A DNA stretch of 64,000 nt, taken from assembly GCA_030679255.1 (NCBI GenBank), contig JAUXTO010000022.1, positions 915-64,914 on the forward strand. The letters run 5' to 3'. The DNA is from Candidatus Gottesmanbacteria bacterium. GTDB taxonomy: Bacteria > Patescibacteriota > Microgenomatia > UBA10105 > UBA927. The notes below the pieces were generated by a model. It was given only the letters and a program-made list of their open reading frames with translations. It had not been told where the DNA came from and did not search any database. Below, piece by piece: positions 32,629 to 62,565 of this stretch. Within the stretch, counting starts at the first letter, position 1; every line of letters starts with the position of its first letter. A program made the translations under genes and the position numbers.

Positions 32629-34023
32629 TTATGACTTCTTCATTATCCTGCCCACCGCCACGGCAAACGCTGCGGTCCGCAGCGTCGTTTTATACTTCTT
32701 TGCGGCCTCCCACACCGCGCCCGCCGCCGTCTCCATCTTCTTTCTAAGTTTGCGGTTCACATCCTCTTTCGTCCAATGTTGGCCCTTGAGATTCTGTTCC
32801 CACTCAAACGCCGACACCGTCACACCCCCACTGTTGGCCAAGACATCAGGGATCACGGTCACCCCTCGCTTGGCGAGAATTTCATCTGCCTCCGGAGTCG
32901 TCGGCCCATTGGCCATTTCAAGAATGACCTTTGCCTTTATCTTTGATGCGTTTTCTTTGGTAATCACATTTTCCAACGCTGCCGGTATGAGGATATCAAC
33001 GGGTAATTCTAAAAGTTGCTCTTGGGTAATCGGCCGGCCTTTCGATAAATCGCAAACTGATCCCGAGCAGTAGCAACCCGCGAGGTACCCATTTTTCTTT
33101 TTACACGCGAGGGTGAGTTCCGGATTGACGCCCGTTGGCACATGGATCCCGCCGCGGCTGTCTGACACGGCAACGACCGTAAAGCCAGCGCCAACTAAAA
33201 ACTTCACCATGTTATACCCCACATTCCCAAATCCCATGACCGCCACAGTCAAACGCGGCTGGGACGTTGAAATTTCTAAGGGAAATTTCTTACGTCCCGC
33301 AACCATCATTGCTTTTTGTTTACTGTTTCCTGTCCCGTTAACCATTTTCTTCAACGCCGCTTGCAACACATATAGTCCCCCCAACCCCGTCGCCTCTTCC
33401 CGTCCCTCTGATCCTCCATCTTTAATCAATTTACCAGTGAACGTACCCCGCAGTTTCTCTTTGTCTTTCGTGCTGACGACTGACGACTGACGACTGACGA
33501 CTTTTATGTATTCATCAACCATCCACCCCATGATCGTCCCATTGGTGTTCACGTCCGGCGCGGGCACATCTTTATCCGGCCCGATCACATCGGCAATCGC
33601 ACGGGCGTATCCGCGGGAAAGCCGTTCCAGTTCCCCGGCTGACAGTTCTTTCGGATCAACGACGACGCCTCCTTTTCCCCCGCCGAGCGGGAGCCCGGCA
33701 ACGGCGCACTTCATCGTCATCCAAAAAGCAAGCGCCTTCACTTCGTTCAAATCGACATTCGGGTGATAGCGTATCCCGCCTTTGTACGGTCCAAGCGCAC
33801 GGTTATACTGCACGCGGTACCCGGCAAATATCCGGAGCGTCCCATCATCCATGACAACAGGGATGTTCACATGCACTTCCCGTTCCGGCTGCTCCAGCTT
33901 TCGAAGGGTTACTTGTAATGTTTTCCCTGATTCCTGATTCCTAATTCCTGATTCGACAAGCACTTTTCCGGCTTTCCCCAACTGAACCAGCGCACTTTCA
34001 AATGGATTGATATGATCAGTCAT
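32629..34023 (-). CDS. gdhA: Glutamate dehydrogenase
   Basis: GPYKGGIRYHP ... GLPLGGGKGG; 464 aa; contains the in-frame GACGACTGA-repeat insert VVSRQSSVVS. Confidence 0.9.
   Translation of the reverse strand: MTDHINPFESALVQLGKAGKVLVESGIRNQESGKTLQVTLRKLEQPEREVHVNIPVVMDDGTLRIFAGYRVQYNRALGPYKGGIRYHPNVDLNEVKALAFWMTMKCAVAGLPLGGGKGGVVVDPKELSAGELERLSRGYARAIADVIGPDKDVPAPDVNTNGTIMGWMVDEYIKVVSRQSSVVSTKDKEKLRGTFTGKLIKDGGSEGREEATGLGGLYVLQAALKKMVNGTGNSKQKAMMVAGRKKFPLEISTSQPRLTVAVMGFGNVGYNMVKFLVGAGFTVVAVSDSRGGIHVPTGVNPELTLACKKKNGYLAGCYCSGSVCDLSKGRPITQEQLLELPVDILIPAALENVITKENASKIKAKVILEMANGPTTPEADEILAKRGVTVIPDVLANSGGVTVSAFEWEQNLKGQHWTKEDVNRKLRKKMETAAGAVWEAAKKYKTTLRTAAFAVAVGRIMKKS
33471..33500. repeat. GACGACTGA tandem repeat in frame in gdhA
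   Basis: gctgacgactgacgactgacgac; same family at 3-30, 34425-34462, 51705-51745 and 55855-55880. Confidence 0.75.
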
Positions 34024-34077
34024 AAGTATAATATGTTGTCAACTCTCCTCCGGTCGAGAGTGAATTGACATCATTTT

Positions 34078-34860
34078 TCAAAAAAACGTTTCTGTAAATA
34101 TCTGGCTCGGAGCGACCCCATTGTCCGTCAGAAGTTGCCGCATGTCCACGATCATACCACGGGTACCGCACAAGTAAAACTCTGAATTTGTCAAATCCGG
34201 TGTCTCGCCGATGACGTGCTCCGTCACCCTCCCCTGTGCACCAGTCCATGCATCCATCGGCTCGCCTCGCTGAGTCGAAGCGGGCTGCGAAAGCGTTAAC
34301 ACAAATCGAAAGTTTGGATGCGTAGCTGCGAGCCCCTCAAACTCATCCTTCCAAAACACATCCGTCTCATACCGCAAGCCCCAGAATAAAGTCATCAGCT
34401 CTCCGCTTTCAGCTTTCAGACTGTTTTTACTTTCTGATGACTGATGGCTGACGACTGACAGCTTGTCCATAATCATCCCCCGCAAGGGTGCAATCCCACA
34501 TCCCGTCGCCACAAATACTTTTGGGCGTATGCTTTCCTTTTGCAACACAAATTTCCCGAGTGGGCCCAAAAACTGCACCGGGTCGCCAGGCTTGAGTCCC
34601 AAAAGCCACTTGGATCCCTCTCCCATGGGAGCGACACTCTGAAGAAGTTCAATCGTTCCGTCTTGACTGGGCGCTGAGGCAATAGACAATGTATGATTCC
34701 CCTTCGGTGGCCCGATTTTGCAGATCACATACTGTCCGGCGGTAAACTGCATTTCTTTGGGATCAACAAGTTTGAGTTTGGCCACATGAAATTCCCCCGC
34801 GACATTGGTTACGGAGTTCACGATTGCGGTGTACATTTGGGGTTTATCCATGATGCTCAT
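34078..34860 (-). CDS. FAD/NAD(P)-binding oxidoreductase, ferredoxin-NADP reductase-like
   Basis: FNR-like beta-barrel plus Rossmann motif VFVATGCGIAPLRGM; 260 aa. Confidence 0.65.
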   Translation of the reverse strand: MSIMDKPQMYTAIVNSVTNVAGEFHVAKLKLVDPKEMQFTAGQYVICKIGPPKGNHTLSIASAPSQDGTIELLQSVAPMGEGSKWLLGLKPGDPVQFLGPLGKFVLQKESIRPKVFVATGCGIAPLRGMIMDKLSVVSHQSSESKNSLKAESGELMTLFWGLRYETDVFWKDEFEGLAATHPNFRFVLTLSQPASTQRGEPMDAWTGAQGRVTEHVIGETPDLTNSEFYLCGTRGMIVDMRQLLTDNGVAPSQIFTETFF

Positions 34861-35866
34861 TCAGCCATTTTTGCGCGTCCATAGCGGCCATACAACCCAT
34901 ACCGGCGGCTACCACAGCTTGGCGATATCGGGAATCGACACAATCTCCTCCAGCAAACACCCCCTCAACTGAGGTTGCCGTCTGCACCAATGTGTTAGAG
35001 TTCTCACTTTCGACTTTTGACTTTTGACTTTTGACTATCTTGATATATCCCTTGGCATCCATGTCGAGAAAACCTTTCAAGAACTCTGTACTCGGTTTGT
35101 GTCCAATCGCCAAAAACACCCCATCCGTCTTCACGTCTTCCAGTACCCCCGTCTTATTGTTTTTCAGTCTCACCCCGCTCACCACGTTCTCCCCGAGTAT
35201 TTCTTCCACGGTTTTGTTGAGTAAAAAGGAAATCTTCGGATTTTTCCGCGCCCGGTCGAGCATGATGGCCGACGCCCGGAACTCCTCGCGCCGATGAACA
35301 ATCGTAACGTGGCTCGCAAAGGTCGTGAGAAACGTGGCCTCTTCCATCGCCGTATCCCCACCGCCGATCACAACGACATCTTTCCCGCGGAAGAAAAATC
35401 CGTCACACGTGGCACACGCCGAGACTCCCTTGCCCATGAGCTTTTGCTCCGAAGGAAGTCCCAAGTACTGGGCTTGCGCCCCCGTCGCCACAATCACCGC
35501 CCTCCCCTGATATGACTCACTTTGTCCTTTCACATCAAAATATTTTTCATTGTCTATTGGCATATTGGTAGTATTGGTAGTATTTGGCTTGGTAGTATTT
35601 GATATTGGTAGTATTTGTATATTGGATATTACATCGCTTACGGCGCTTGCGCCGAAGCGTGTTGCCTGCTTTTTCATTTCTTCCATCAAAGCCGGGCCCT
35701 TGATGCCGCCCGCAAATCCGGGAAAATTGTCGACATCCGTCGTGGTCGTGAGTTGTCCGCCGGGCGCAATGCCTGCCAGAACAAGCGTTTTCAAAAAAGC
35801 TCTCGAAGTATAGAGAGCCGCAGTGTATCCTGCCGGCCCGGAGCCAATGATGATGACATCATACAT
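34844..35866 (-). CDS. trxB: Thioredoxin-disulfide reductase
   Basis: GSGPAGYTAA, CATCDGFFF, GGGDTAMEEA; contains two in-frame repeat inserts (NTTKPNTTNTTN and KSQKSKV). Confidence 0.9.
   Translation of the reverse strand: MYDVIIIGSGPAGYTAALYTSRAFLKTLVLAGIAPGGQLTTTTDVDNFPGFAGGIKGPALMEEMKKQATRFGASAVSDVISNIQILPISNTTKPNTTNTTNMPIDNEKYFDVKGQSESYQGRAVIVATGAQAQYLGLPSEQKLMGKGVSACATCDGFFFRGKDVVVIGGGDTAMEEATFLTTFASHVTIVHRREEFRASAIMLDRARKNPKISFLLNKTVEEILGENVVSGVRLKNNKTGVLEDVKTDGVFLAIGHKPSTEFLKGFLDMDAKGYIKIVKSQKSKVESENSNTLVQTATSVEGVFAGGDCVDSRYRQAVVAAGMGCMAAMDAQKWLNEHHG
35564..35626. repeat. TTGGTAGTATT repeat array inserted in frame within trxB (encodes SNTTKPNTTNTTN)
   Basis: attggtagtattggtagtatttggcttggtagtatttgatattggtagtatttg lies inside the trxB ORF. 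Confidence 0.8.
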
Positions 35867-36681: not shown

Positions 36682-37055
36682 CCCACCTGTTTGACACAGA
36701 TGTTCTTATCTTTCATCTCAAAGACCACTACATCCTCCCGATTACCCCGGACATGCCGCCGGCGATAAGTGTGATCACCTATGCGGAGCTCCTCTATGGT
36801 GTTGAAAAATCAAAAAATCCCAAAAGGCGTACCCAGCTTGAGGCACTGCTTCAAGATTTACGCATGGTGATTCTTCCGGTAACACCAGCCATCATTGCGC
36901 GTTTCATTGCCCTGAAAATTCAATTGGAGACGGATGGAGAAAAACTTGCTGACTTTGACCTCCTCATCGCGGCGACGGCCATGGAGCATAATCTCACCCT
37001 TATCACCGGCAATAAAAAGCACTTCTCCCGCATCCCCGGCCTTTCTCTGGCCTAA
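36678..37055 (+). CDS. vapC: PIN-domain toxin VapC
   Basis: LFDTDVLIF ... LIAATAMEHNLTLITGNKKHF. Confidence 0.8.
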   Translation: MTHLFDTDVLIFHLKDHYILPITPDMPPAISVITYAELLYGVEKSKNPKRRTQLEALLQDLRMVILPVTPAIIARFIALKIQLETDGEKLADFDLLIAATAMEHNLTLITGNKKHFSRIPGLSLA

Positions 37056-37507
37056 TTTTTTCCTTCAAACATCTCCAAAAACTCTGCCGGTGTCATGATG
37101 GCAATAGCTTTGTATTGTTTTAGACGCAATAAATCCGTATCTCCCGTCACGATATATCCGCACGCCCCCTCCGCTGCCGCCTCCAATACCCGATTATCGT
37201 CATCATCATCCAGTAAAGCGATGGTTTTCTCCGGTTGAATAATGAGAAAACTGTCTTGTATCAATGACTCTGAATCCGCAAGTCTCCGTGTGGAAAAATG
37301 AAACTTTTTCGACAAGACGTCGATAAGTTCTGCTACCAATACACGTGTCGCCACCCCAGTGATATGTTCATCGACCACAAGCGCAAGAATTTGTTTTGGT
37401 ATACCGCCGTAGACGATGGCGGAAACGAGAACGTTCGTATCGATGACTACCCGAAGGACATTACTGCTTTTTCCCATGCCGATAATTCCAAACAATTTTA
37501 TTGACAT
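37052..37507 (-). CDS. PIN-domain protein (putative TA toxin)
   Basis: VVIDTNVLVSA ... GDTDLL. Confidence 0.7.
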   Translation of the reverse strand: MSIKLFGIIGMGKSSNVLRVVIDTNVLVSAIVYGGIPKQILALVVDEHITGVATRVLVAELIDVLSKKFHFSTRRLADSESLIQDSFLIIQPEKTIALLDDDDDNRVLEAAAEGACGYIVTGDTDLLRLKQYKAIAIMTPAEFLEMFEGKN

Positions 37508-37855: not shown

Positions 37856-38557
37856 TCATTCCATCGTCTTCTCCGGCCCCTGGTCGCGGTGATAATCGAT
37901 GAACCGCTCAATTCTTCCCGCGTCAAAACTGTCAAACGTATCGATATAATTCCACGCAGTAAGAGCTATCGTCGTTTCTAACTGAGGTCTCGGAACCACC
38001 GCGAGTTTCCAGAGTTTTTTCTTATTGGCGAGTTCCGTAAGACTTTCTACCAACGTCTTGCACCCTTCACTCCCATTCACGGCGCTCCCGGTGGCAATAG
38101 TGGGATCTTTAAAATCTGCCGACGGACTGCCAGATTCTTCATGCGCAAAGACTTTTAGACTTTTGACTTTCCCGCCTGCAACGCTTTGCGTAGCATTGCG
38201 GGCAGGCGACTTTTGACTTTTTAAGTGCACATTACAGTTATAATTGATAATCACATATCCATGCTCGAGCGCATGGAGGAGCTCCCCCTCACTTTGCGGC
38301 GAAGTAAATACTCCCCCCCTCACCCACGTCGCAAGATGCGATCCGCTCGTCGGTGGATTACTATTGTATTTAAAATCAGCAACCGCCTGTGGCGACACAT
38401 GCTCTCTCCCTTGATCAGCCATCTTCGTCCCCGGCACCGGCCGGGTCACCGTCCACCCAATCCATCCAAGGATTCCAACAATCACAATACCGATCCCCAC
38501 TTTCCACCACATAATATAGCGAGTATACCATATGGTGTATAATAACAATCTCATCAT
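37856..38557 (-). CDS. DUF3105-like membrane-anchored protein
   Basis: N-terminal TM; PPTSGSHL motif; contains the in-frame repeat insert KSPARNATQSVAGGKVKSLKV. Confidence 0.55.
   Translation of the reverse strand: MMRLLLYTIWYTRYIMWWKVGIGIVIVGILGWIGWTVTRPVPGTKMADQGREHVSPQAVADFKYNSNPPTSGSHLATWVRGGVFTSPQSEGELLHALEHGYVIINYNCNVHLKSQKSPARNATQSVAGGKVKSLKVFAHEESGSPSADFKDPTIATGSAVNGSEGCKTLVESLTELANKKKLWKLAVVPRPQLETTIALTAWNYIDTFDSFDAGRIERFIDYHRDQGPEKTME
38150..38225. repeat. GACTTTTGAC-flanked element with a GC-rich palindromic core, in frame in the DUF3105 gene
   Basis: gacttttagacttttgactttcccgcctgcaacgctttgcgtagcattgcgggcaggcgacttttgacttttt; homologous copy at 53385-53470 in the PHP gene; core-less copy at 35010-35045 in trxB. 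Confidence 0.75.
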
Positions 38558-40663: not shown

Positions 40664-40799
40664 AGTTCTAGTATACATACCCTTACTCCCTCCTAATTTC
40701 TCATAACTTCTCTTAACCTCTCCTATCCCTTCTCTTTCTGTATGCTCTCATAAACAGCCCGTTGCTTTGATGTGGATTGACGATCTACAATTAATTTAC

Positions 40800-41571: not shown

Positions 41572-42618
41572 ATGTTTCTACCAACCTACCGTATTTCCGA
41601 TCAGATTCTTGCATGGCTTTCTGAAATTGCCCAAATCAAAGCTATGGTGGACCATGCCACATTACTCCCTGCTCGCCAAGCGCTACTTCGCCGCGCTACA
41701 ACGATCAAGATGACCCATTCCTCCACCTCCATAGAGGGAAATTCCCTGAAAGAATATCAGGTGCTTCAGATCGCAGACGGCAAGAGGGTGCAGGCTCAAT
41801 CCAAGGATATCCGGGAGGTCCAAAACTATCTCAGCGCGCTTGAACTTATAGATACTCTCTCTCAAAATTCTACGTTCACCCAGGGAGACATCCTCGCGAT
41901 CCACAGTCGCGTGATCACAGGGTTAGTAGACACCGCAAAAACCGGCACGTTGCGCCGTGGACCGGTGTATGTCGTCAATACATTACCGTCAGGAAGGGAA
42001 CAATTAGTCTATACACCGCCTACGTGGCAGAAAGTAGCTGTCCTTTTAGACGATCTCACCGCGTGGTGCAACGAATCTGCCGCAGTCCATCCTATTATTC
42101 GAGCGGGCATCCTTCATTATCAATTTGAATCGATCCATCCCTTCACCGATGGCAACGGTAGGGTGGGGAGACTTCTCACCCTCCTTCATCTCTACCAATC
42201 TGCCTGGAATTTTAAAAAGGTTCTGGTGTTAGAAGATTTTTATAATGAAAATCGGAAAAATTATTACGAGGCTCTCCAAACAGGTACAACATTTGCAAAA
42301 CGAGATGGCGCAGATATCACCCCATGGCTCACCTACTTTATCAAAGGATTTTGGGAGGAAGCACTTCGCGTAAAAGAACAAATACTGAGCTTACAGGTAG
42401 GCGCAGGGGATATTACATCGCGCAGACTCACGACAGACGAACTCAGGATGATCGATTTCCTCGTGACGATGGGAAAAATTACGAGCGCTGATGTGGTAGA
42501 CATACTCCAGGTGCCCAAGCGTACGGCACAAGCGAAACTGAAAAAGTTAGAGCTCTATCGTATCGTTAAAAAAATATCTGCTGGTCCGAGTACTTACTAC
42601 TGCCTTGCGCCCACATAA
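41572..42618 (+). CDS. Fic/DOC-family protein
   Basis: Fic motif HPFTDGNGRVGRLL. Confidence 0.85.
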   Translation: MFLPTYRISDQILAWLSEIAQIKAMVDHATLLPARQALLRRATTIKMTHSSTSIEGNSLKEYQVLQIADGKRVQAQSKDIREVQNYLSALELIDTLSQNSTFTQGDILAIHSRVITGLVDTAKTGTLRRGPVYVVNTLPSGREQLVYTPPTWQKVAVLLDDLTAWCNESAAVHPIIRAGILHYQFESIHPFTDGNGRVGRLLTLLHLYQSAWNFKKVLVLEDFYNENRKNYYEALQTGTTFAKRDGADITPWLTYFIKGFWEEALRVKEQILSLQVGAGDITSRRLTTDELRMIDFLVTMGKITSADVVDILQVPKRTAQAKLKKLELYRIVKKISAGPSTYYCLAPT

Positions 42619-42732
42619 ACGGTACCGCTCCTCATTCTCTCCTCATTTCTCTTGCCTTCCCGTAGTTCTCTCATACTCTCCCGCATTCATCCCGTTGCTT
42701 TGATGAGGGATGACGATCTACAATAAATTTAC

Positions 42733-45112: not shown

Positions 45113-45266
45113 ACTCCCGAGCTCTCCTACTTCCTCCTACTCTCTCCTATCCACTCCTAATTACCCTTATCCTCCCGTACATTCCCATACTCCCGCAGTA
45201 CCCCCTCGCGGCCCACATCGTGCGTAGGATTGATTACTTCCCATCAACCATTTACTATGTCTCTAC

Positions 45267-51023: not shown

Positions 51024-53672
51024 TTACAACAAACTCATTTGTTCTTTCGACGCGTCCACGAGGGGTTTATCTTCATCGTCGCGCCAGAGTTTCACGACAC
51101 CAAATACTCCGTCATACCCGGGATCGATGACGAGATCCCCACGTCGGACTTTATCGATACCTTCAGCTATCCTTGCGCCCGCAACCTTCGTAATTTCCTC
51201 TATAGTCGCGTTCAGAAGCACATTAAACTCCCCACCCAATGCATCTGTCAGCGTCATGTACGGCCCCTGTACCTTGGGGCTTGCAACCGGTGATCCAATA
51301 CACTCATGAATTATCTCTTGTAAGGGTACGAGCATCACAAACGGCGGCCTGTTTGGAAATTTCTTGCTTCCCGTCATCCGAATTGTTTTCTTATCTGACA
51401 GCTGACCCGCTTCGCCGGAGCTTGAGCGAGGCGAGTAGTTGACAGCTGATAGCTTGAGTGATTCCTCGCTCCTCCCTGCCAGCTGTTCAACTCTCTGCAC
51501 GACACCCTGGACAAGCGGTTTCCCACACACAGGACACGTCGTCCCCTTCTTTGCCGTCTCCTCGGGACCCCACCGTATCCCGCACGCCCGGTGCCCCGAC
51601 CAATGATACTTCCCCTCTTCGGGATAAAATTCTATCGTATAAGCAATCTTAGCTTTCAGCTTTCTGTCTTCAGTCTTCAGACTTGAAGAACGTATCGCAT
51701 CATAAATCATCTGATAGCTGAGAGCTGACGACTGACGACTAGTCTCAAATACCGTCGCTTCCCTCCCCAACTTCGGCCCCGAGTGCGCATCGGAAAAAGA
51801 CAGAATCGATCGATGATCAAGTTCCTTGATGCGCCAATTCATCGCCGGATTACTCGATAACCCCGTCTCTATCGCATAAATATGCTTTGCATACGGCCCA
51901 AATGCCTCATCCAGACTCTCAAACCCACCCTTCTCGCCATAGACCGAGAACCACGGAGTCCAGCAATTATGAACAACCGCATACTCTGCGATATATGAAT
52001 GATCCTTTTCCACCTCCAGGTTATAGACATCGCCTTCATACACTTTTTTTGTTATTTCCTTTATCGGCAAATAGACGTTCATTTTGTCGATCCATCCATG
52101 CCTACGGTCCAACGTTGTTTGCGACTTCGGCATTTCTTTTTTGAGATCAAACGCATCCTCAAAGAAAGAAAGATTTGACATTGAATAGAGATCATAGTTA
52201 AATTTTATCACCCGGTTGCCAATTTTATGATTACCTATTCTTTGATGCACCGCTTCATTATTTATGATAATAGATGGAATAATACCCAGACGAAGACACA
52301 CAGCTTTCATCTGATGTACCAACATTCGCGACGTCGTATATCCACGATCTCCCCTATACCACCCGCGGAGACATTCTGCTTGTGCAGCAGCATCTGCCAT
52401 TAGGAGCACAGATGGAATCATTTTATTGCTTGCGGAATGTTTTTGTCCTGGTGTGTAGCATTGGTGAGCGAACCACTGGGCATGGAGTTTGGAATAATAA
52501 ATAATTTCCACACCTTTTGTCTGTTTCCGACGATACAGTCGATTGTAATCAATGCCAAGTACGTTTTTCACTAATTGAACGACATCATCGATATATTCCT
52601 GTTCCTTTTCAGAAAAACAAAAGGAAAAACTATTGTCGCCGTCCGTGGACCCCTCCGCAATATAATACCCGACCAATCTACCCAAATCCGACGTTATGGG
52701 AATTCTGTTTTTCAGCACTCTCCCCCGTGTTCCCCCGGCGCGAATTAAACTTTCGTGCCCTCCATTTACATCCAAATACATATCTGTTTCGCGCTTCATC
52801 GTTTGCGAACGTGGATATACGAGCATATCACCTACGGTTAAATCTTCTGCCTTAACCCATGCTGGTTTATACTTCAAACATTCTTTTCTTTTGCAAAGAG
52901 AAAGGTGCGATCTGCTGGGTCGGCATATATCGCCGGTACTCGAACACTTCTTAATTGTTTGGATAGCATAATATGGATGCTCCGGCGTCGTCACAAGCCC
53001 GGGACGGAAGTACCAAGGTTGTACATGAAGAACAAATCCTTTATATGAACGTTTTTTTACTTCTGTAACGCTATGCAGCTCACCGGTGTGTGTTAACACA
53101 CCATCACCTTCTACAATTTTGTCGATACGTTTCGGCACAAAATTATCTCCCAATATCATCGAATCAGGGAGAAGACAATGCGCCGGTATGATCAACGCTT
53201 TAGGCTCTATAGCCAACACGAGTTCGGCTATATGGATGCAGGAAAGCCCCACGATAGGCCGACCGTCGCTCATGAGATTGCAGCCGCGCTTCGTCATCTC
53301 CTGACTAATTTTCCGGGCAGACGCAATGGTCGGCACCCAGATGAGTGTATGCACCCGCCGGACTTTCCCGCCCTGGGAATAAATCGAAGAAACTTCGGTA
53401 GCAAGCATAAAATGAGGACTTTTGACTTTCTTGCCCGCCGTAGCTTTAGCGGAGGTGGGTGACTTTTGACTTTTGACTTGTAATAACCCATTCCCCAACT
53501 CCACCAGATCCCTCTCTATCTCCCGAAACCACATCGGGTGCATCCAGTCGCCTGTCGCGACCAATCCTATCCCCTTCCTCCTCGCCCACGCGGCAATATT
53601 GGGGATAGTCATAGCCGGCGACACCGCACGGGAAAAATGGGAGTGGAGCTGTAAGTCGGCAATAATCTGCAT
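51024..53672 (-). CDS. PHP-domain protein (EndoQ/TIGR00375-like?) with C-terminal zinc ribbon, interrupted by a LAGLIDADG intein
   Basis: N-terminal ADLQLHSHFS PHP motif. Intein Cys1 ...AH|CLLPDS..., LAGLIDADG blocks LVGYYIAEGSTDGDN and LRGWYRGDRGY, C-terminal VVHN|C. Extein resumes CWTPWF...SFSDAHS; later CPVCGKPL. Confidence 0.7.
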   Translation of the reverse strand: MQIIADLQLHSHFSRAVSPAMTIPNIAAWARRKGIGLVATGDWMHPMWFREIERDLVELGNGLLQVKSQKSPTSAKATAGKKVKSPHFMLATEVSSIYSQGGKVRRVHTLIWVPTIASARKISQEMTKRGCNLMSDGRPIVGLSCIHIAELVLAIEPKALIIPAHCLLPDSMILGDNFVPKRIDKIVEGDGVLTHTGELHSVTEVKKRSYKGFVLHVQPWYFRPGLVTTPEHPYYAIQTIKKCSSTGDICRPSRSHLSLCKRKECLKYKPAWVKAEDLTVGDMLVYPRSQTMKRETDMYLDVNGGHESLIRAGGTRGRVLKNRIPITSDLGRLVGYYIAEGSTDGDNSFSFCFSEKEQEYIDDVVQLVKNVLGIDYNRLYRRKQTKGVEIIYYSKLHAQWFAHQCYTPGQKHSASNKMIPSVLLMADAAAQAECLRGWYRGDRGYTTSRMLVHQMKAVCLRLGIIPSIIINNEAVHQRIGNHKIGNRVIKFNYDLYSMSNLSFFEDAFDLKKEMPKSQTTLDRRHGWIDKMNVYLPIKEITKKVYEGDVYNLEVEKDHSYIAEYAVVHNCWTPWFSVYGEKGGFESLDEAFGPYAKHIYAIETGLSSNPAMNWRIKELDHRSILSFSDAHSGPKLGREATVFETSRQSSALSYQMIYDAIRSSSLKTEDRKLKAKIAYTIEFYPEEGKYHWSGHRACGIRWGPEETAKKGTTCPVCGKPLVQGVVQRVEQLAGRSEESLKLSAVNYSPRSSSGEAGQLSDKKTIRMTGSKKFPNRPPFVMLVPLQEIIHECIGSPVASPKVQGPYMTLTDALGGEFNVLLNATIEEITKVAGARIAEGIDKVRRGDLVIDPGYDGVFGVVKLWRDDEDKPLVDASKEQMSLL
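51966..53177 (-). mobile_element. Intein (404 aa) with a LAGLIDADG homing-endonuclease domain inside the PHP-domain gene
   Basis: Bounded by Cys (residue 166) and His-Asn (568-569), followed by a Cys +1; contains two LAGLIDADG motifs. Confidence 0.7.
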
Positions 53673-54741: not shown

Positions 54742-55563
54742 TTATTGAAATAATTTTACTATGGACTTGAGATGCAACATGATATCCGCAACGACCTTTT
54801 CATTCCATGTTACATTATTTTTATTATAAAGTTGCCCGCCCATGATAAACCCCGGAACTCCGTCCGGTGATTTGTTGGTGAGTAATACAGATATTGCGGA
54901 GTAGATGTACGCTCCCATTGCGCCAAGCATTCCTTGTTTTCTGTATCGTCTGAGTGAATAGACACAAAGCACCTCGCGTAATACGGATAGGGGTACATGT
55001 TTTTTATACAACCGGGTAGAAAAATCGTGGTCCTCGCCAAACGCTTTCTGTTCGTCATATCCGCCTACCCGGTCAAATATATCTTTTCTTACCACAACAA
55101 ACGGCCCCGGCGACCACGGGCGCTTGACGAGAATATAACCCTCAATGACAATGTTATTGAGGAGTATGAGAATAGCATCTTTGATCTCCTCACTATCGGC
55201 GCGGAACCACGAAGTGAAAAACGGGGCCTTCATGGTATGAATATGATCAATGCACCGCTGGATCAGATACGGCAAGGCGACCGTATCGGCATCGACAAAT
55301 ATATACCACGATCCGTGCGCGTGTTTTGCTCCCAAATTCCGCTGATATGGCAGGCTCGCCTTCTCTCCAACCAGAACCCGCAAGGATGGAAGTTTTTTCT
55401 CAAATGATTTGGCCACTGCCACGGTCTTGTCTTTCGATTTCCCATCGACGACAATCACTTCAAAGTTTTTTTGGGATTGTCCGGCAAGCGACTCCAGAAG
55501 ATGCGGTAAAAACTTTTCTTCATTGAGGGCCGGTATGATGACAGAAAATAAAGGATTCTTCAT
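54742..55563 (-). CDS. Family-2 glycosyltransferase (tandem paralog)
   Basis: FSVIIPALNEEKFL ... VIVVDGKSKDKT ... FVDADT. Confidence 0.8.
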   Translation of the reverse strand: MKNPLFSVIIPALNEEKFLPHLLESLAGQSQKNFEVIVVDGKSKDKTVAVAKSFEKKLPSLRVLVGEKASLPYQRNLGAKHAHGSWYIFVDADTVALPYLIQRCIDHIHTMKAPFFTSWFRADSEEIKDAILILLNNIVIEGYILVKRPWSPGPFVVVRKDIFDRVGGYDEQKAFGEDHDFSTRLYKKHVPLSVLREVLCVYSLRRYRKQGMLGAMGAYIYSAISVLLTNKSPDGVPGFIMGGQLYNKNNVTWNEKVVADIMLHLKSIVKLFQ

Positions 55564-55615
55564 ATTGGTTTATTGGTAGTATTTGAAATTGGTAGTATTG
55601 GTACTATTGGTAGTA

Positions 55616-57379
55616 TTAATTTCTATTCCCCCCCTGCTCCCGATACATTTTTTTGATCTCCTCGACACTCGTGGCCTGAGCGGGTGACTTATCCGTCCGT
55701 ATTCTCACTAATCTTGGGAAACGGACGGCAACGCCCGCCCCGTGCGTGGACGATTTGGTGAGATCGTCGCCCGCTATTTCCACAACGATCTTCGGCTCTA
55801 TCCACACGTCCGGCTCAAGCATTTTCGGGACCTCAGGATATTGCTTCGGTCTGATACCTGACGACTGACGACTGAACGCTGTTTTTAGTGATTTCCACAT
55901 TTCGTCCGTCACTCCCGTACCAATTTTTGTAATCGTCACAAAATCCTCTCCTTTTCTTACCCCCACGAGAAACGCGCCAATCCCAAACCCCGCCCTTTTT
56001 CCTTCTCCACGGTAGTAGCCCATGACGACCGCATCGATGGTGTCGGTAAGTTTGCCGATCTTGCCTTCTTCTTCCTTAAATTTCACCCAGCTGTACCCGC
56101 GCCTCCCGGGCTCATAGGGACTATGCCATTTTTTCACGACCGCCCCTTCTAAACCTTTCTTTATTTGTTCGTCATGATATGACCGGATTCTCTCCGGGGA
56201 ATCCGTCACGATTTGCGGAGCAATCACGAGCATACCTCCCCTATCACCCTCTTTGATTGTTTCTTCCAAAATCTTTCTTCTCTCCGACAGTGGAGTACTG
56301 AGCAAATCCTTCCCGTCTTTATAGAGGATGTCAAAAACGAAAAATTTGAGAGGAACTTTCAGAAGCGACGCTTGGATATCGTGCTTCCTCTTACGTGTCG
56401 ATGTCTCCTGAAATGGGATAAGCTTGCCGGTCGCCGGATCCATCCCCACCGCCTCACTGTCTAAAATAACGTCGTGAGCGTTCAACTGCTTTCCAACCTC
56501 TTGCAACTCCGGAAACATCTCCGTCGTATTCTCCAAATTCCTCGAAAACGTCTTCACTCTTTCTATCTTGCTATTTTGCTCTCTTGCTATCTTGCTGTAA
56601 TGAATTTGCACCCTCACGCCATCATATTTCCCTTCGACGGCGACCTCTCCCATCTTTTTGATCATTTCATCCGCGGTTGGCAGGCGCTGGCAAAGAGACG
56701 CAAGGATCGGCGCGCCGACGACGGCTTTTACATGAGACAGCCCCGCGATCCCGCGCTCTTTAATTTGTGTTGCGAGAAGCCCGATGTCCGGCCGGATATT
56801 GTAAACTTCCTCGAGCCTCTCTCTTTGAGTTTTATCACCCGCAAGCATCCAGGACAGGGCGTCGAGGATCGTCATGTCCGAAAACCCGAGTCGGAGTTTA
56901 TCCAGTGGTATCCGCACAAAATACCGTACAGACAATGCATCGAGGGATCCTAAAAGTTCTGCAAGTGCTTCAATCTTCCCCTCCTGCGACCCCTCTCCCC
57001 CCATCCCCGTAATTTCAACAAGTCGTTGATAAACGTTATCGATTGTTCTATTCTTTCCCTGATTCCTGATTCGGGATTCCTGATTCGATATATGCTCGGC
57101 GGCCGCTCCCAAATCTCCAAGTTTCCCAAACGCTCGTTTCACAATCTCATCCTCTACTCCATACGCTTTGGCGATAGCGCGTATCATCAATTTATCTCCC
57201 ACACCAAACTCGATGGGTTCATAGAGTGGCGCCACACGGCCTTGAAGCAAGTAACAAAGTTTGCCGATTTCCTCGCGACCGGCCTTCGTAAATAATTCTG
57301 CAAGTATCTCCGTCATCGCATTACGGGAGGGGGTCGCCTCAAGCTTTTGAAAAAAAATTGATAATTCTGCAAACGTCAT
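55616..57379 (-). CDS. lig: ATP-dependent DNA ligase
   Basis: Adenylation motif KYDGVRVQIH; 587 aa; contains the in-frame GACGACTGA insert (AFSRQSSGIRPK). Confidence 0.85.
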   Translation of the reverse strand: MTFAELSIFFQKLEATPSRNAMTEILAELFTKAGREEIGKLCYLLQGRVAPLYEPIEFGVGDKLMIRAIAKAYGVEDEIVKRAFGKLGDLGAAAEHISNQESRIRNQGKNRTIDNVYQRLVEITGMGGEGSQEGKIEALAELLGSLDALSVRYFVRIPLDKLRLGFSDMTILDALSWMLAGDKTQRERLEEVYNIRPDIGLLATQIKERGIAGLSHVKAVVGAPILASLCQRLPTADEMIKKMGEVAVEGKYDGVRVQIHYSKIAREQNSKIERVKTFSRNLENTTEMFPELQEVGKQLNAHDVILDSEAVGMDPATGKLIPFQETSTRKRKHDIQASLLKVPLKFFVFDILYKDGKDLLSTPLSERRKILEETIKEGDRGGMLVIAPQIVTDSPERIRSYHDEQIKKGLEGAVVKKWHSPYEPGRRGYSWVKFKEEEGKIGKLTDTIDAVVMGYYRGEGKRAGFGIGAFLVGVRKGEDFVTITKIGTGVTDEMWKSLKTAFSRQSSGIRPKQYPEVPKMLEPDVWIEPKIVVEIAGDDLTKSSTHGAGVAVRFPRLVRIRTDKSPAQATSVEEIKKMYREQGGNRN

Positions 57380-57796: not shown

Positions 57797-58840
57797 CTAG
57801 GTACGCAGCACATATCGTGCTCCCTTCGTCGTTCCTTCTTTGACCACTATACCTTTTTTGAGTAAGTCCTTCAATTCCCGGAGTACCGTGTCTTCGCTCA
57901 CCATGGGAAACAGTTCAAAAAATGATTTATTCTGCAAAAACCCACTCTCCTGGATATACTCGATGATCTTGATCTGTCGCTCTGAGAGAGAAATCTGCTG
58001 TCCGCCGAGGGACTTTTTTATCTTGAGATCCGTAGAAAGTCCCTTCACTTTTTCCTTGATACGCGTCAGTTCAATCGCGAGTCCCTCGATGAAGTATTCA
58101 AGCCAGACGTTGAGGTTTCCTCCTGCTTTCCCGACACTTTGGAGCGCTTCATAGTAGGCCATAGGTTCGCGGTCATAGTATTCTTCAAGAGCAAAAAAAC
58201 GTTTGATGTCATACCCTTCTTTAAAAAGGACGAGAGTCGCTGTCGCCCGCGCGACTCTCCCGTTGCCATCCAGGAATGGATGGATGCGGACCGCCTCATA
58301 GTGCGTGATGCCGGCTTTGAGCGCTGTATGCACTTGGTCATCGGTTGTGCCATTGAGCCATTCCAAAAATGACCGGAGCAAGAATGGCACTTCGATGGCC
58401 GGCGGCGGCCGGAAGGTGATCTCGCCGGTGGCCGAATTTTTCACGACGACCTGGGTCTTGCGGTACTCCCCCACTTGCTCGTCGGGTAGTAGCCGGTGGG
58501 TCGTAAGCTCATGAATATGTTTGATGGTTTCCTCGCTAATTTCTTTTTTATCGTACCCCTCGATGAACTTGAGGACATTTCGGTAGTTAAGCACTTCCTG
58601 GATATCGCGGTCGCGTCCCACAATCTTTCCGCCGGCCAACACCTGTTCTGCCTCGGTTTTATTAAGTTCATTTCCCTCAATGTGGGTGCCATGGTGGACG
58701 GTCCGGACGATCGCCTCCTCGCGAAATTTGGCTTCCCATGCCGGCACGAGGGGCGAATTCTCGATCACTTCCTTCGCCGCCTCAATCGTCCCGATGAGCC
58801 GAAGAAGTTTGTTGGTGATGGTGAAGTTAGGAGAGTACAT
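57797..58840 (-). CDS. Fic/DOC-family protein with C-terminal wHTH
   Basis: HPFLDGNGRVARATATLVL; start trimmed to MYSPNF. Confidence 0.8.
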   Translation of the reverse strand: MYSPNFTITNKLLRLIGTIEAAKEVIENSPLVPAWEAKFREEAIVRTVHHGTHIEGNELNKTEAEQVLAGGKIVGRDRDIQEVLNYRNVLKFIEGYDKKEISEETIKHIHELTTHRLLPDEQVGEYRKTQVVVKNSATGEITFRPPPAIEVPFLLRSFLEWLNGTTDDQVHTALKAGITHYEAVRIHPFLDGNGRVARATATLVLFKEGYDIKRFFALEEYYDREPMAYYEALQSVGKAGGNLNVWLEYFIEGLAIELTRIKEKVKGLSTDLKIKKSLGGQQISLSERQIKIIEYIQESGFLQNKSFFELFPMVSEDTVLRELKDLLKKGIVVKEGTTKGARYVLRT

Positions 58841-58963
58841 ATTCCCGCATTTCAATCCTGTATAACCAGGTAGTAGAACTTCGACGCGAAAACGAAGTTT
58901 TCGCTTTGCAGCGCGCTTTTTTGCGTGCTGTGTCGAAGTTTCACTACCTGGTATAATAAACGC

Positions 58964-59233
58964 ATGGACCAAAAAACACAACTATCAGAGAAGAAAAAAC
59001 TCCACAAGGAAATTCTCAAACAGATGGTCACCCTGTCCGCCTCCGGCTTCGGGCTCGTCGCAGCGCTTGCCTGGAACAATGTCATCCAGGAGCTCGTGAG
59101 CAATTACATCAAACCCTACCTCCCCAACGGGGGTCTTCTTTCACTACTCATCTACGCCATCCTCATTACCATGCTCGCTGTCACCATTACCTATCAACTC
59201 TCAAAACTTGTGGAAAAACTGGAGAAATCATGA
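58964..59233 (+). CDS. Small membrane protein
   Basis: SASGFGLVAALAWNNVIQELV plus a second helix. Confidence 0.45.
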   Translation: MDQKTQLSEKKKLHKEILKQMVTLSASGFGLVAALAWNNVIQELVSNYIKPYLPNGGLLSLLIYAILITMLAVTITYQLSKLVEKLEKS

Positions 59234-59478: not shown

Positions 59479-59904
59479 TCATTTCTGGTCATCCAAGCCA
59501 AAGCGGATGTAGCCGTTTTTGCGGAAAACCTCATCATAGCCGAAGACAAATTTCGTATTGTACGCATCAGCCGTCGCCATCACGAGACAATCGGTGAAAC
59601 TTACGGAAGCCGGTTGTGACGAAAACTTAACGAGTGCTTCTTTTCGAATAGTTGTTGATGTTTCTACTATTGTGAAATCCGGCGACTCCAGGATGCTCTT
59701 TCCTACTCGTACCGCGATGTCGTGACTGACTTTTTTACCAAGAACATTGACCGTCTCGGTGACTATTTCGCCGGGCATGATGAACGGAAGATGTTGTTCT
59801 TGGATAGAAACACTGCCGGCCAGAGCACGGGCGTGATTGCTGTCTGTCGCCGAAACAAGCGAAACAAACCCGCTGGAGTCTGCTATGACAGGACTTTTCA
59901 TCAT
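59479..59904 (-). CDS. PIN-domain toxin
   Basis: VIADSSGFVSL ... LVMATADAYN. Confidence 0.7.
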   Translation of the reverse strand: MMKSPVIADSSGFVSLVSATDSNHARALAGSVSIQEQHLPFIMPGEIVTETVNVLGKKVSHDIAVRVGKSILESPDFTIVETSTTIRKEALVKFSSQPASVSFTDCLVMATADAYNTKFVFGYDEVFRKNGYIRFGLDDQK

Positions 59905-60539: not shown

Positions 60540-61409
60540 TTATTTTTCTTTATCAATAACCAATGATTTCATCACCACCGGTATCTCCCCAGCCAAATCC
60601 GTCGCATTGAAGTATGGACCGACGCGGGCGTAGAGCGCGTCCCCGGCTTTTTTATTGATGAAGCTGCCGGCAATCGCAGCGAGGAACGGATCGTTTTTGC
60701 AGGCTAAAGCCGCGATGAGTCCCGCCAGCACATCCCCCGTCCCGCCCTTGGTCATCCCGGCGTTGCCGCCTTCGATCACCCGGCACTCCCCCAGTGTACA
60801 AACATTTCTATCACATTCCCCGCCACTGGCGGCGATATCCTTCTCGCCCTTGAGCAACACGATGCACTGATATTCTTTCGCAAACAATTTTACTTTATCT
60901 TGATCTGAAATTATTTGGTCATTAGAAATTGGAAATTGGAAATTACGGCAAAGCCCTTCAAACTCTCCATGGTGCGGTGTCAATATGGCGTTTTTCGGAA
61001 TGAGCGACAGATCCATCATTTGGAGAGCCCCCGCGTCAATCACCCACTGTTTCTTGGGATATTTTTTCAATAATCGATTCGTCAATTCCTGTGTTTCAGG
61101 GGTCCGGTCCATTCCCGGACCGATAAGGATACAATCATCCTCTTCAATATAATTTTCCACATCTCCCCGCGCTATCACAATTCCATTTCTAAATTCCTCT
61201 TTCGCTTTTTGCACGATTTCATTATTCTCCGGCACGCTGCAGTAATGCACCAAGTCGACTATCCGCGAGGCGACGGTGAGCGACCACAGACTCGCCGCGT
61301 GGAACAGGTGGGATCCTCCAATAATGAGGAGCCTCCCGTTCTGACCCTTATGGCTCCCTCTCCCCGGCACATATAGCGTTTTCAAGTCCTCAATAGTTAC
61401 GGTCTTCAT
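60540..61409 (-). CDS. nnrD: YjeF-family carbohydrate kinase / NAD(P)H-hydrate dehydratase
   Basis: LIIGGSHLFHAASLW ... LIGPGMDRT ... GTGDVLAGLIAAL; contains the in-frame repeat insert NFQFPISNDQ. Confidence 0.8.
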   Translation of the reverse strand: MKTVTIEDLKTLYVPGRGSHKGQNGRLLIIGGSHLFHAASLWSLTVASRIVDLVHYCSVPENNEIVQKAKEEFRNGIVIARGDVENYIEEDDCILIGPGMDRTPETQELTNRLLKKYPKKQWVIDAGALQMMDLSLIPKNAILTPHHGEFEGLCRNFQFPISNDQIISDQDKVKLFAKEYQCIVLLKGEKDIAASGGECDRNVCTLGECRVIEGGNAGMTKGGTGDVLAGLIAALACKNDPFLAAIAGSFINKKAGDALYARVGPYFNATDLAGEIPVVMKSLVIDKEK

Positions 61410-61424: not shown

Positions 61425-61485
61425 TCCGACTTTATAGACTTTATAGACTTTATAGACTTTAGACTTTAGACTTTAGACTTTCTGA
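61425..61485. repeat. GACTTTATA / GACTTTA tandem-repeat array (intergenic, yjeF-recF spacer)
   Basis: gactttatagactttatagactttatagactttagactttagactttagactttctgac; related arrays at 28668-28710 and 39062-39085. Confidence 0.85.
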
Positions 61486-61491
61486 CTTCTA

Positions 61492-62565
61492 TTATAACCT
61501 TATCACCTTGGCGGCCCCCAGTATCTCTTTTGGCACCGAGGCTTCATCGGCGGAAGTCAAAATTGTTTGTTGCTTACCAACTAAATCAACAACGAGCCGT
61601 CGATGCCCTTCATCCAGCTCCGAAAATATATCGTCGAGAAGTAAAATAGGCCGCTCTCCACTCTCTTGCTCTATATAAGAAAGTTCTGCAAGCTTCAACC
61701 AAAGCACCGCAAGCCGCTGTTCACCGCGGCTCCCATATTTACTCAACTGCTTAATATTTGCTTGGTCATTGGGATTTGGGATTTGAGATTTCATGACGAC
61801 AAAGTCGTCCCGATGTGGCCCCACGAGCGTCGCCTTCGCCCCCACTTCTTCGGCCGCATACTGCTCGAGCCGGCTCTCCGATATCACACTCTTGTCATAT
61901 TCAATCTGATATCTTACATCTGACATCTTATATCTATTGACAAAGTCAATCAGCTCTCCCCTCTTTTCCGTTATATATTCCCCGGCTTTAATGAGGAGCT
62001 GATTCCAAAACAGGAGCTGCCCCCTTCCTGCCTTTCCTTCATTGATGAGATCCAGGAGTCGGTTGCGTTGCCGGAGTCCCCGCTCATAGGAAGAGAGATT
62101 TCTCCGGTATTCACGGTCCACTTGCACGAGGACGCTGTCCAAATATTTTCGTCGTATCGAGGGGCTATCGGTGACGAGCTCGAGGTGCTCCGGCCAAAAA
62201 AGGACCGCCCGCAAATTGCCCACGAAGTCCACCTGCCGCCTGGGTACCCCATTGACCAGATACTTCTTCATCGGCACTTCTTGTCCCTGCACTTCTCCCT
62301 GTGTAATTACTACTTCAAGGCTTATTTGGTCATTGAGATTTGAGATTTGAGATTTTATCCATGTCATTTCGCTTCCCCACCCGATCGCCTCCCGATCTTG
62401 ATCCGCCCGGAAACTTTTGCCTGTCGCAAGAAACGCGATCGCCTCCAAAATATTCGTCTTCCCCGCCGTATTGGGGCCTACGATGAGCGTTGTACCAGTG
62501 GAAAACTCAAATGTCTTTTTCGCGTAACTACGGAAATTTTGAAGCGAGAGGTTCGACAATATCAT
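61492..62565 (-). CDS. recF: DNA replication and repair protein RecF
   Basis: LIVGPNTAGKTNILEAI (Walker A) ... LLLDDIFSELD; contains two in-frame repeat inserts. Confidence 0.9.
   Translation of the reverse strand: MILSNLSLQNFRSYAKKTFEFSTGTTLIVGPNTAGKTNILEAIAFLATGKSFRADQDREAIGWGSEMTWIKSQISNLNDQISLEVVITQGEVQGQEVPMKKYLVNGVPRRQVDFVGNLRAVLFWPEHLELVTDSPSIRRKYLDSVLVQVDREYRRNLSSYERGLRQRNRLLDLINEGKAGRGQLLFWNQLLIKAGEYITEKRGELIDFVNRYKMSDVRYQIEYDKSVISESRLEQYAAEEVGAKATLVGPHRDDFVVMKSQIPNPNDQANIKQLSKYGSRGEQRLAVLWLKLAELSYIEQESGERPILLLDDIFSELDEGHRRLVVDLVGKQQTILTSADEASVPKEILGAAKVIRL

Follow-up and report, generated by a model that had tools for sequence, protein, structure and literature searches.

Very short repeated DNA sequences lie in frame inside conserved housekeeping genes of Candidatus Gottesmanbacteria, and the same repeat families occur between its genes. 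We analyzed a stretch of 64,000 nt (hereafter the window; positions 915 to 64,914 of contig JAUXTO010000022.1, assembly GCA_030679255.1) from a groundwater metagenome-assembled genome (MAG) of this group, which belongs to the candidate phyla radiation (CPR), together with other loci and metagenome contigs (numbered with the prefix L). The repeats probably result from a genome-wide proliferation of very small repeated DNA in the Gottesmanbacteria lineage, propagating as DNA and not as peptide. In the window they form two layers: AT-rich tandem arrays, and GC-rich hairpins nested in these arrays. A preliminary description of this DNA had merged the two layers, while recognizing correctly that the units are direct tandem repeats. 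Each of the four repeat forms that it had placed in genes is present where it said and encodes the peptide it gave. The claim that families are shared between spacers and reading frames is borne out by the 30-nt composite described below and by the AATACTACC arrays.

The host genes, whose identities were confirmed with Pfam and agree with the earlier gene calls, are as follows:

32629-34023, minus strand, Glu/Leu/Phe/Val dehydrogenase (GDH)
34078-34860, minus strand, FNR-like oxidoreductase
34844-35866, minus strand, TrxB
37856-38557, minus strand, DUF3105 protein
51024-53672, minus strand, 882-aa protein whose PHP-like N-terminus is interrupted by a LAGLIDADG intein
55616-57379, minus strand, ATP-dependent DNA ligase
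60540-61409, minus strand, NnrD (Carb_kinase; YjeF-C)
61492-62565, minus strand, RecF

Tandem Repeats Finder (TRF) returned 96 rows for the window, which merge into 75 arrays covering 2537 nt; the 20 dinucleotide-preserving shuffles used as a control contain 5-17 arrays each (mean ~9.5). When the window and 27 other loci are pooled (290 arrays), the most common period is 7 (100 arrays), followed by 9 (50), 8 (45) and 10 (26), so the periodicity is a property of the DNA and not of codons. How densely the arrays lie depends on the lineage within Gottesmanbacteria: the window, L001, L007 and L013 have 12-19 per 10 kb, and L012, L017, L021 and L028 have ~1.5 per 10 kb, the level of the shuffles. 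About 60% of the arrays lie in the interiors of open reading frames (ORFs), though these interiors make up 81% of the sequence, and intergenic DNA is thus ~2.8-fold denser in arrays.

Short-read MAG contigs can collapse or mis-join repeats, and an assembly or sequencing artefact of low-complexity DNA was a possibility that the preliminary description had itself raised. We give it practically no chance. L001 and L002, which come (like L032) from Hainich aquifer metagenomes and represent one population sampled twice and assembled independently, agree at 100% identity across 13,718 nt with many arrays, and the repeats are therefore not assembly artefacts. The frames of all host genes are intact, and the same sites vary coherently across 26 species.

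The array units fall into recurring families, the largest being AATTATCC (11 occurrences), AATACTACC (9), AAAAGTC (6), AGCTATC (6) and ACGACTG (5), with 2-5 loci per family. The units AATACTACC, AATTATCC, AAAAGTC, AGCTATC, CAGTCGT and AAATCCC recur at unlinked loci and in several species. Many units have a common CCAAT or AGTC core, and AATACTACC arrays show the same internal interruption at 5-6 loci.

In some arrays the composite structure is fixed. One of these is a discrete 30-nt sequence, (AAATCYC)3AATGACCAA, which consists of three heptamers and AATGACCAA. It occurs twice in recF, as a variant in the NnrD gene and once in intergenic DNA of the window, as well as in recF and the NnrD gene of L011. 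The genic copies in the window are:

61762..61791, minus strand, 30-nt composite at RecF site 3, read as KSQIPNPNDQ
62326..62355, minus strand, second 30-nt composite at RecF site 1, read as KSQISNLNDQ
60915..60944, minus strand, composite variant (AATTTCC)3AATGACCAA in NnrD/YjeF-C, read as NFQFPISNDQ

We compared RecF with 26 recF loci from GTDB species recovered by tblastn (27 sequences with the window), and NnrD with 21 orthologs (22 sequences). RecF site 3 is empty in 10 of the 26 orthologs and adds 10 residues relative to the solved RecF 5z67. RecF site 1 is extra relative to most Gottesmanbacteria orthologs, but not relative to the best solved RecF; relatives have (CCAATTAT)3 (L004) or (CCAATTT)n (L005) there. 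The NnrD site is empty in 9 of 21 orthologs, and the AAATCYC version occupies it in L011 and in the metagenome contigs L034, L054 and L056. Taken over both proteins, the sites are empty in ~40% of species and hold other repeats in the remainder.

The exact 30-mer was found in 40 metagenome contigs. In contigs of low GC content (0.35-0.49) it lies in frame in ten Pfam families: GatA-type amidase, SpoU methylase, YidC, GltX, SecA, NnrD (two copies in one gene), ribosomal protein L17, a Wzy_C protein, a MiaB-like radical-SAM enzyme and a CobQ-type amidotransferase. It is read in two frames, as KSQIPNPNDQ and as NPKSQIPMTK, sometimes both in one gene; the third frame, which contains TGA, was never seen. 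The SecA host has its closest affinity with Magasanikbacteria-type Patescibacteria, a class other than that of Gottesmanbacteria, and its relatives have other repeats or none at this loop. The 30-mer also occurs in contigs of 62-70% GC (L033, L035, L038, L050, L053 and L057), where it is intergenic. In these high-GC contigs the 30-mer and AAATCCC arrays have inverted TTGGGAT or TTGGTCA arrays as partners, and the pairs make long AT-rich hairpins. A Mu-like head gene is present in L050; only 7 of the 120 matches listed for this contig have taxon names, and those of them that rank among the closest matches are from Phycisphaerae, Phycisphaerales and Planctomycetales. The high-GC contigs are probably from Planctomycetes. 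One further exact copy is in a predicted viral contig (L070:8691-8720; IMG/VR IMGVR_UViG_3300017987_002545). The presence of one 30-mer in CPR and in high-GC contigs could mean a shared mechanism or an exchange of DNA.

The second layer consists of GC-rich hairpins of 21-62 nt (nested examples measure 21, 30, 31, 33 and 37 nt). In at least 8 of the 9 hairpins inspected, tandem arrays lie on both sides and keep their phase from one side to the other. Hairpins occur inside the ORFs of the DUF3105 gene, the 882-aa gene, RecF, GDH and NnrD. The copies in the window include:

38171-38207, single hairpin in the DUF3105 gene
53430-53460, single hairpin in the 882-aa gene
51406-51435, single hairpin in the 882-aa gene
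21455-21493, single intergenic hairpin, a second copy of the DUF3105 hairpin arms
6621-6683, minus strand, ~60-nt two-hairpin element (TCCCGCGAAGCGGGA plus a 45-nt hairpin), intergenic copy
14292-14352, minus strand, two-hairpin element with one compensatory base-pair change
21585-21644, minus strand, two-hairpin element that provides the final codons and the stop of an ABC gene

The two-hairpin element is nested in AATACTACC arrays at the 3' ends of three genes and has no Rfam match. A gathering-threshold Rfam search of the window, L003 and L007 returned only 23S rRNA and one tRNA. Hairpin families are shared between loci and species: CCTGCCTCGCCGGCAGGCAGG is found in L005, L013, L011, L003, L014 and L010, and TCCCGCGAAGCGGGA with its second hairpin in the window, L004, L005, L008, L022, L006 and L011. 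Perfect-stem hairpins number 48 in the window and 10-32 in shuffles; since this bulk excess is modest, the layer is defined by its families and not by bulk counts. When the recF DNA of L004 and L005, which are close to each other, is aligned, a 30-nt and a 21-nt hairpin are seen as precise insertions in L005 with no target duplication. The idea that heptamer arrays are footprints of target-site duplication (TSD) left by insertion or excision of hairpins was not supported, given that arrays run in phase across hairpins (L003 and L004) and that the L005 insertions have no TSD.

These observations bear on an alternative in which nothing moves: replication slippage acts in situ on chance duplications of 7-10 nt, and the likeness within families reflects mutational or compositional bias and the footprint of the polymerase. 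Bacteria in general have an excess of heptamers among their long simple sequence repeats (SSRs), which has been put down to slippage of the polymerase, by the account of Mrázek 2007 given in PMC4692102. Different units do occupy orthologous sites, as at another recF site of L004 and L005, where one has an 8-nt unit (CCAATTAT) and the other a 7-nt unit (CCAATTT), and arrays near gene starts look like the local Shine-Dalgarno (SD) sequence. Slippage accounts in this way for the period-7 excess and for the turnover of units, but not for identical composites at a distance or for hairpin families: the same 30-nt composite is found at unlinked sites, in ten gene families and in genomes of GC 0.35 to 0.70, the AATACTACC composite keeps its internal interruption at 5-6 loci, and GC hairpins that recur as families cannot come from slippage. 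We consider slippage alone unlikely. Dispersal rather than local origin is indicated by the identical 30-mer at unlinked sites, in ten families and in distant genomes, and by hairpin families at unlinked loci and in different species.

Inside genes, the remaining arrays and hairpin inserts are listed below.

33473..33502, minus strand, (GTCGTCA)4.3 = (CTGACGA)4.3 array in GDH, read as VVSRQSSVVS
33926..33954, minus strand, (AATCAGG)4 array near the GDH N-terminus, read as ESGIRNQESG
34395..34458, minus strand, two heptamer arrays in the FNR-like gene (one at 34434-34458), read as SVVSHQSSE...LKAESG
35006..35036, minus strand, (AAAAGTC)4.4 = (ACTTTTG)4.4 array in TrxB, read as KSQKSKVES
35555..35625, minus strand, AATACTACC-type composite (TATTGGTAG-type, SNIQILPISNTTKPNTTNTTN) in TrxB, read as SNIQILPISNTTKPNTTNTTNMPI
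38149..38225, minus strand, (AAAAGTC)n array in the DUF3105 gene with the 37-nt GC-rich hairpin (38171-38207) inside, read as KSQKSPARNATQSVAGGKVKSLKV
51406..51435, minus strand, 30-nt GC hairpin insert in the 882-aa gene (SPRSSSGEAG), flanked by CAGCTRT heptamers
51662..51740, minus strand, (GTCGTCA) and (GACTGAA) arrays in the 882-aa gene (including 51725-51740), read as ETSRQSSALS...SSLKTEDRK
53410..53479, minus strand, (AAAAGTC)n array in the 882-aa gene with a nested 31-nt GC-rich core (53430-53460)
55858..55875, minus strand, (GTCGTCA)2.6 array in the ligase, read as SRQSS
56558..56596, minus strand, (TAGCAAGA)n array in the ligase, read as SKIAREQNSKIER
57058..57087, minus strand, (AATCAGG)n array in the ligase, read as SNQESRIRNQG
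61904..61935, minus strand, heptamer-periodic stretch at RecF site 2, read as YKMSDVRYQ

Among 31 TrxB orthologs (60-81% identity), the two repeat sites are the only hypervariable indel regions of the protein. Relative to the solved thioredoxin reductase 9xub, the KSQKSKVES site adds 13 residues (aa 278-291) and the composite site ~15 residues (aa 85-102). Both sites are empty in the orthologs P0007 and P0008, which includes the absence of the KSQKSKVES insert, and other orthologs carry KIANSKYQIANSQ, KSKFKNQKFDEKNQ or a 35-aa insert. In the AlphaFold model of TrxB (pLDDT 82), pLDDT falls below 50 only at residues 94-104 and 281-292, which are the two inserts, modeled as coil.

For the genes of the DUF3105-trx-trxB-FNR-gdh block, L001 and L003 provide the syntenic loci of relatives, and GDH, the FNR-like gene, the DUF3105 gene and the 882-aa gene show the same indel pattern against L001 and L003. 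The VVSRQSSVVS site gives GDH ~9 extra residues relative to the solved P. furiosus enzyme; at this site L003 has (AGTCAAA)n and L001 an insert of ~60 aa. In the N-terminal array of GDH, the L003 ortholog has a nested 21-nt GC hairpin (SPPAGEAG). The array segment of the FNR-like gene is missing in L001. The DUF3105 hairpin folds at -24 kcal/mol, and the gene of L001 has the array without the hairpin. In the 882-aa gene, the hairpin insert at 51406-51435 is missing from the L001 ortholog, the first site at 51662-51740 is another tandem sequence in L001 (DEHVIGEHDEHVI), and at 53410-53479 the L001 sequence differs, with a related core at L001:4361-4380. This gene hosts three arrays and two GC-hairpin inserts in all, and its L001 ortholog has an MJ0043_C domain.

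The ligase was compared with 14 orthologs. Its SRQSS loop has the same length in all of them, which means that repeat-derived sequence replaced an existing loop with no net insertion. At 56558-56596 the gap fraction per residue reaches 0.93, and at 57058-57087 L006 has KSQKSKVKN and the other orthologs are shorter. RecF site 2 contains AGATGTC, CAGCTAT or CGAGTAT heptamers depending on the species, with a GC hairpin nested in L005, L007 and L011. In spite of dozens of indels, the reading frame is intact in each of the 26 RecF orthologs, so the inserts are translated and not bypassed. Overall, 24.5% of array residues are aligned to gaps in at least half of the orthologs, compared with 5.0% of other residues, a descriptive figure in which residues are not independent.

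The expectation that host proteins have extra residues at the repeats thus held for both TrxB sites, GDH, the FNR-like gene, the DUF3105 gene, the 882-aa gene, NnrD and RecF site 3; it failed for the ligase SRQSS loop and, against the best solved RecF, for RecF site 1. As had been proposed, the inserts are lineage-specific: relatives without the repeat either lack the residues or carry other repeats, and no relative was found that keeps the same residues without the repeat. Close relatives differ in their presence or absence. The inserts also lie in loops, as anticipated, judging by the TrxB model and by their alignment to gaps in solved homologs. Three further inserts specific to the window have no TRF array: GDH aa 227-257 (33260-33340), FNR-like aa 195-202 and NnrD aa 198-207. 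They may be decayed older arrays or of unrelated origin.

The arrays inside genes have been filtered by selection. Among array consensus units with periods not divisible by 3, 87 of 106 genic units are free of stops in all three frames, compared with 19 of 49 intergenic ones (odds ratio 7.2, p = 2e-7; random expectation 0.51). The arrays are also polarized. GC skew is strongly negative over the entire window, and the orientation of individual families relative to the G-rich strand is 10:1, 9:0, 6:0, 6:0 and 5:0. Arrays that are purine-rich on the G-rich strand prevail at 92:49 in leading-strand genes, 20:8 in lagging-strand genes (a small sample) and 75:35 in intergenic DNA. Because the bias is alike in all three, polarity tracks the chromosome strand and not the gene. 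In lagging-strand genes the arrays encode N-terminal segments rich in Pro, Leu and Ser.

Beyond the interiors of genes, arrays lie at gene ends and in spacers:

15930..15974, minus strand, AATACTACC array that makes up the C-terminal tail of ABC gene 1 (...YNTTNKQISNTTNTTK, then the stop)
21585..21680, minus strand, AATACTACC array and 60-nt two-hairpin element that together supply the C-terminal tail and stop of ABC gene 2 (...YNTTNNQILLPRSGIHDAVIR, then the stop)
9975..10063, minus strand, intergenic 30-nt composite followed by 22-nt repeats containing (TGACCAA)
55563..55617, minus strand, AATACTACC composite array in the spacer from the ligase stop to the next gene
11579-11627, 24294-24332 and 62601-62648, same architecture as at 55563-55617
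61428..61481, minus strand, (TATAAAGTC)/(TAAAGTC) array downstream of recF

Both ABC-transporter genes terminate within AATACTACC arrays, with the endings ...GEGDYNTTNKQISNTTNTTK and ...GEGDYNTTNNQILLPRSGIHDAVIR before the stop. A further alternative is a function: the elements could be binding sites for proteins or RNA (terminators, regulatory or nucleoid sites), adaptive lineage-specific loops, or both. The array downstream of recF keeps its position in the window, L004 and L005 (its mix of units differs), the two-hairpin element lies at three gene 3' ends and shows a compensatory change, SD-like arrays lie upstream of genes, and many units have the CCAAT or AGTC core. For the genic copies, a function is contradicted by the reading of one DNA in two frames that give unrelated peptides, by inserts that are missing or replaced in close relatives, and by their predicted disorder. 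Moreover, no Rfam family matches, and the polarity of the units follows the chromosome strand and not the gene. Function as a general explanation is in our judgment improbable, more so than slippage, although some intergenic copies could still serve as binding sites or terminators.

SD-like tandem arrays, (TAGGAGAAAC)n on the minus strand, are found upstream of many minus-strand genes. They keep their chromosome orientation between plus-strand genes, where a transcript would have the anti-SD-like CUCCUA. Their positions are:

6697-6773, 15856-15885 and 18719-18754, SD-like arrays
20500-20545, 21512-21537 and 40690-40722, SD-like arrays
42628-42651, 45122-45159 and 49237-49276, SD-like arrays

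The preliminary description likened the repeats to Rickettsia palindromic elements (RPEs), a label that does not fit the elements of the window. RPEs are palindromes of ~100-150 bp with a conserved peptide, as Ogata et al. 2000 is summarized in PMC10969869, which puts their length at ~150 bp. The window elements are direct tandem arrays of 18-71 nt, in which only the nested GC cores are palindromic, and hairpins of 21-62 nt; they are read in more than one frame, and no homology to RPEs is known for them. What they share with RPEs is in-frame insertion into unrelated conserved genes, where the inserted stretch is translated and, being part of the protein surface, tolerated. A third layer, present only in relatives, comes closer: a dispersed palindromic element of ~118 nt with compensatory changes in its stem, which is the clade's most RPE-like object and the only one that fits the length of an RPE. 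All its copies are on the G-rich strand:

L003:5883-6017, G-rich strand, 118-nt element, in frame in the FNR-like gene at the position of the window's array segment
L007:11580-11709 and L007:3490-3622, G-rich strand, 118-nt element, one copy in frame in NnrD of L007 (GTPWFSHRQGPDLSDIH...)
L028:6137-6269, G-rich strand, 118-nt element
L011:13014-13138, G-rich strand, 118-nt element
L016:6252-6313, G-rich strand, 118-nt element

It could be asked whether the whole system is a true RPE or a miniature inverted-repeat transposable element (MITE), a transposon derivative that does not move by itself and depends on the transposase of its parent. In-frame insertion into unrelated housekeeping genes and the 118-nt palindrome in two such genes speak for it. 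Against it, the window elements have neither the length of RPEs nor terminal inverted repeats, the 21-nt and 30-nt insertions in L005 lack the TSD of MITEs, no transposase was seen among the window ORFs scanned, and the 118-nt element was not found in the window. This origin appears very improbable to us.

Other known systems resemble the repeats in part. Short tandemly repeated repetitive (STRR) sequences of cyanobacteria were reportedly described by Mazel in 1990. As in heptameric SSRs and STRRs, units of ~7 nt (the peak of the period distribution) are arranged head to tail, and the same unit turns up at numerous dispersed sites. Units of the GGGATTT type are similar to the G-tract heptamers of Nostoc and Xanthomonas. 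TTGGTCA arrays occur in the window (9991-10044), L047 and L050, and this unit may be identical to cyanobacterial STRR2. The host, in contrast, is a CPR bacterium with a small genome and not a cyanobacterium or xanthomonad with a large one, and its repeats include fixed composites, among them the 30-mer, that recur as separate units. Cyanobacterial heptameric repeats are mostly intergenic but, like the present arrays, also have a sizeable intragenic share (32% in Anabaena; Rehm 2015, PMC4692102); ~60% of the present arrays lie within ORFs, including essential genes. The strong chromosome-strand polarity also differs from the roughly equal strand use reported by Rehm (PMC4692102).

The nested hairpins recall, by description only, the small dispersed repeats (SDRs) that Elhai et al. 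reportedly found in 2008 (Genome Res 18:1484). These are said to be hairpin-forming units of ~21-27 nt, often embedded in tandem heptamers, with nested insertions, compensatory changes and presence/absence between relatives, and to be perhaps the smallest mobile elements. Both are dispersed hairpins embedded in heptamer arrays; ours are 21-62 nt long, GC-rich, from a CPR lineage and repeatedly in frame in housekeeping genes. SDRs, for which PMC3116915 and PMC5861425 cite Elhai 2008, were reported to be restricted to Nostocaceae. Repetitive extragenic palindromes (REPs) and their paired form, REPINs, share with our hairpins the short GC-rich imperfect palindromes, the dispersed families with some two-hairpin doublets, the lack of target duplication and a possible polarity linked to single-stranded DNA (ssDNA) or replication. 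REPs are extragenic by definition and linked to a gene for a REP-associated tyrosine transposase (RAYT) (PMC3116915), whereas our hairpins lie inside genes and no RAYT was seen among the 48 ORFs of the window.

The system as a whole combines STRR-like arrays and SDR- or REP-like hairpins with an RPE-like, in-frame presence in housekeeping genes. Its host group is new, its discrete units are unusually small, and its distribution crosses phyla. Low-complexity inserts in housekeeping proteins of Plasmodium falciparum, and GC clusters and double-hairpin elements in fungal mitochondrial genes, are likewise cases in which slippage-prone repeats or mobile GC hairpins give in-frame non-globular insertions in conserved proteins. 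They are eukaryotic or organellar and differ in composition, with no evidence of relatedness to the present repeats.

The proliferation that we favor would involve two layers. The first would be dispersed tandem arrays with units of 7-10 nt, which form families and include fixed composites like (AAATCYC)3AATGACCAA; the second would be GC-rich hairpins that insert precisely and with no target duplication, almost always within first-layer arrays. Elements would land chromosome-wide in one polarity, with A and purines enriched on the G-rich strand. Under purifying selection, genic copies would survive only if they kept the frame, were stop-free and lay in tolerant loops or termini, and the survivors would be translated into short, hydrophilic, disordered peptides. 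Arrays would then grow, shrink and homogenize through replication slippage, a turnover that would leave different units at orthologous sites in different species. The data above establish that the repeats are real and dispersed, that they are polarized, filtered by selection and placed in loops, and that they turn over; we infer further that the elements would be selfish or neutral passengers, spread by a copy process linked to replication or ssDNA.

Several points weigh against this reading. Its neutrality is an assumption. Pfam scans of the 48 ORFs in the visible 64 kb found genes of toxin-antitoxin type, housekeeping genes and an intein, but no transposase, RAYT, HUH enzyme or reverse transcriptase, so the copy mechanism lacks a candidate enzyme. 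Neither the window nor the 20 loci examined contains a switch in GC skew at which a flip of polarity at the origin could be assessed. Since most genes are co-oriented with the G-rich strand, polarity of replication is hard to separate from polarity of transcription or from selection on the protein. L001 and L002 show no variation in array copy number, which indicates that slippage is not fast. Finally, some sites, for instance RecF site 2, look like in situ duplications of local heptamers.

A bolder version, which we put forward tentatively, is that the 30-nt composite and the nested hairpins of 21-37 nt are autonomous-looking 'nano-elements', smaller than any accepted mobile element. They might be copied by an unrecognized strand-specific process (replication-fork or RNA-mediated) across Microgenomates, Parcubacteria and the high-GC probable Planctomycetes or their phages, generating new surface loops in essential proteins.

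A literature search returned nothing linking Gottesmanbacteria, Patescibacteria or CPR to tandem or simple-sequence repeats, in line with the suggestion that the phenomenon was unreported in CPR; the unit sequences themselves are not CPR-specific. Very small repeats that reshape conserved proteins in a bacterium are a real and apparently unreported case. Proteins of CPR or Patescibacteria are known for odd lineage-specific insertions, and the repeats supply a DNA-level source for some of these. Elements of 21-30 nt can disperse and become fixed in frame in SecA, GltX, GatA, RecF, TrxB and similar genes, which is relevant whenever CPR proteins are annotated, aligned, placed in phylogenies or modeled in three dimensions. 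How heptameric repeats and SDR-type mini-elements originate has been a standing question since the 1990s-2000s. Dense, polarized, family-structured arrays in genomes of ~1 Mb, for which many related MAGs and a time series of aquifer samples exist, make slippage, ssDNA transposition and RNA-mediated copying separable computationally.

Some further features of the window and its relatives are worth recording. The DNA ligase (55616-57379) is an ATP-dependent Lig1-like enzyme (DNA_ligase_A_N/M/C) conserved in 14 related species, and may be relevant to the sealing of breaks or flaps at repeats. The 23S rRNA gene (1062-4081, minus strand) measures 3020 nt against the 2925 positions of the Rfam model, and a tRNA lies upstream of it (4459-4531, minus strand); ORF calls below ~4600 are spurious. 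Immediately downstream of the 23S rRNA is a (CTGACGA) array (4-33). L001, the closest syntenic relative, has two genes for four-helix bundles of the 23S_rRNA_IVP/bAvd type (3663-3977 and 7395-7754). Such genes frequently accompany diversity-generating retroelements as accessory genes; the 20 kb of L001 that was examined showed no reverse transcriptase. Genes of toxin-antitoxin or abortive-infection type are unusually dense for 64 kb of a small genome:

4886-5605, 5628-6305, 24364-25140 and 46001-46753, AbiEii genes
27400-27795, 31917-32327, 37052-37507 and 59479-59904, PIN genes
41572-42618 and 57797-58981, Fic genes

At positions matching these genes, relatives have pairs of HEPN and nucleotidyltransferase genes.

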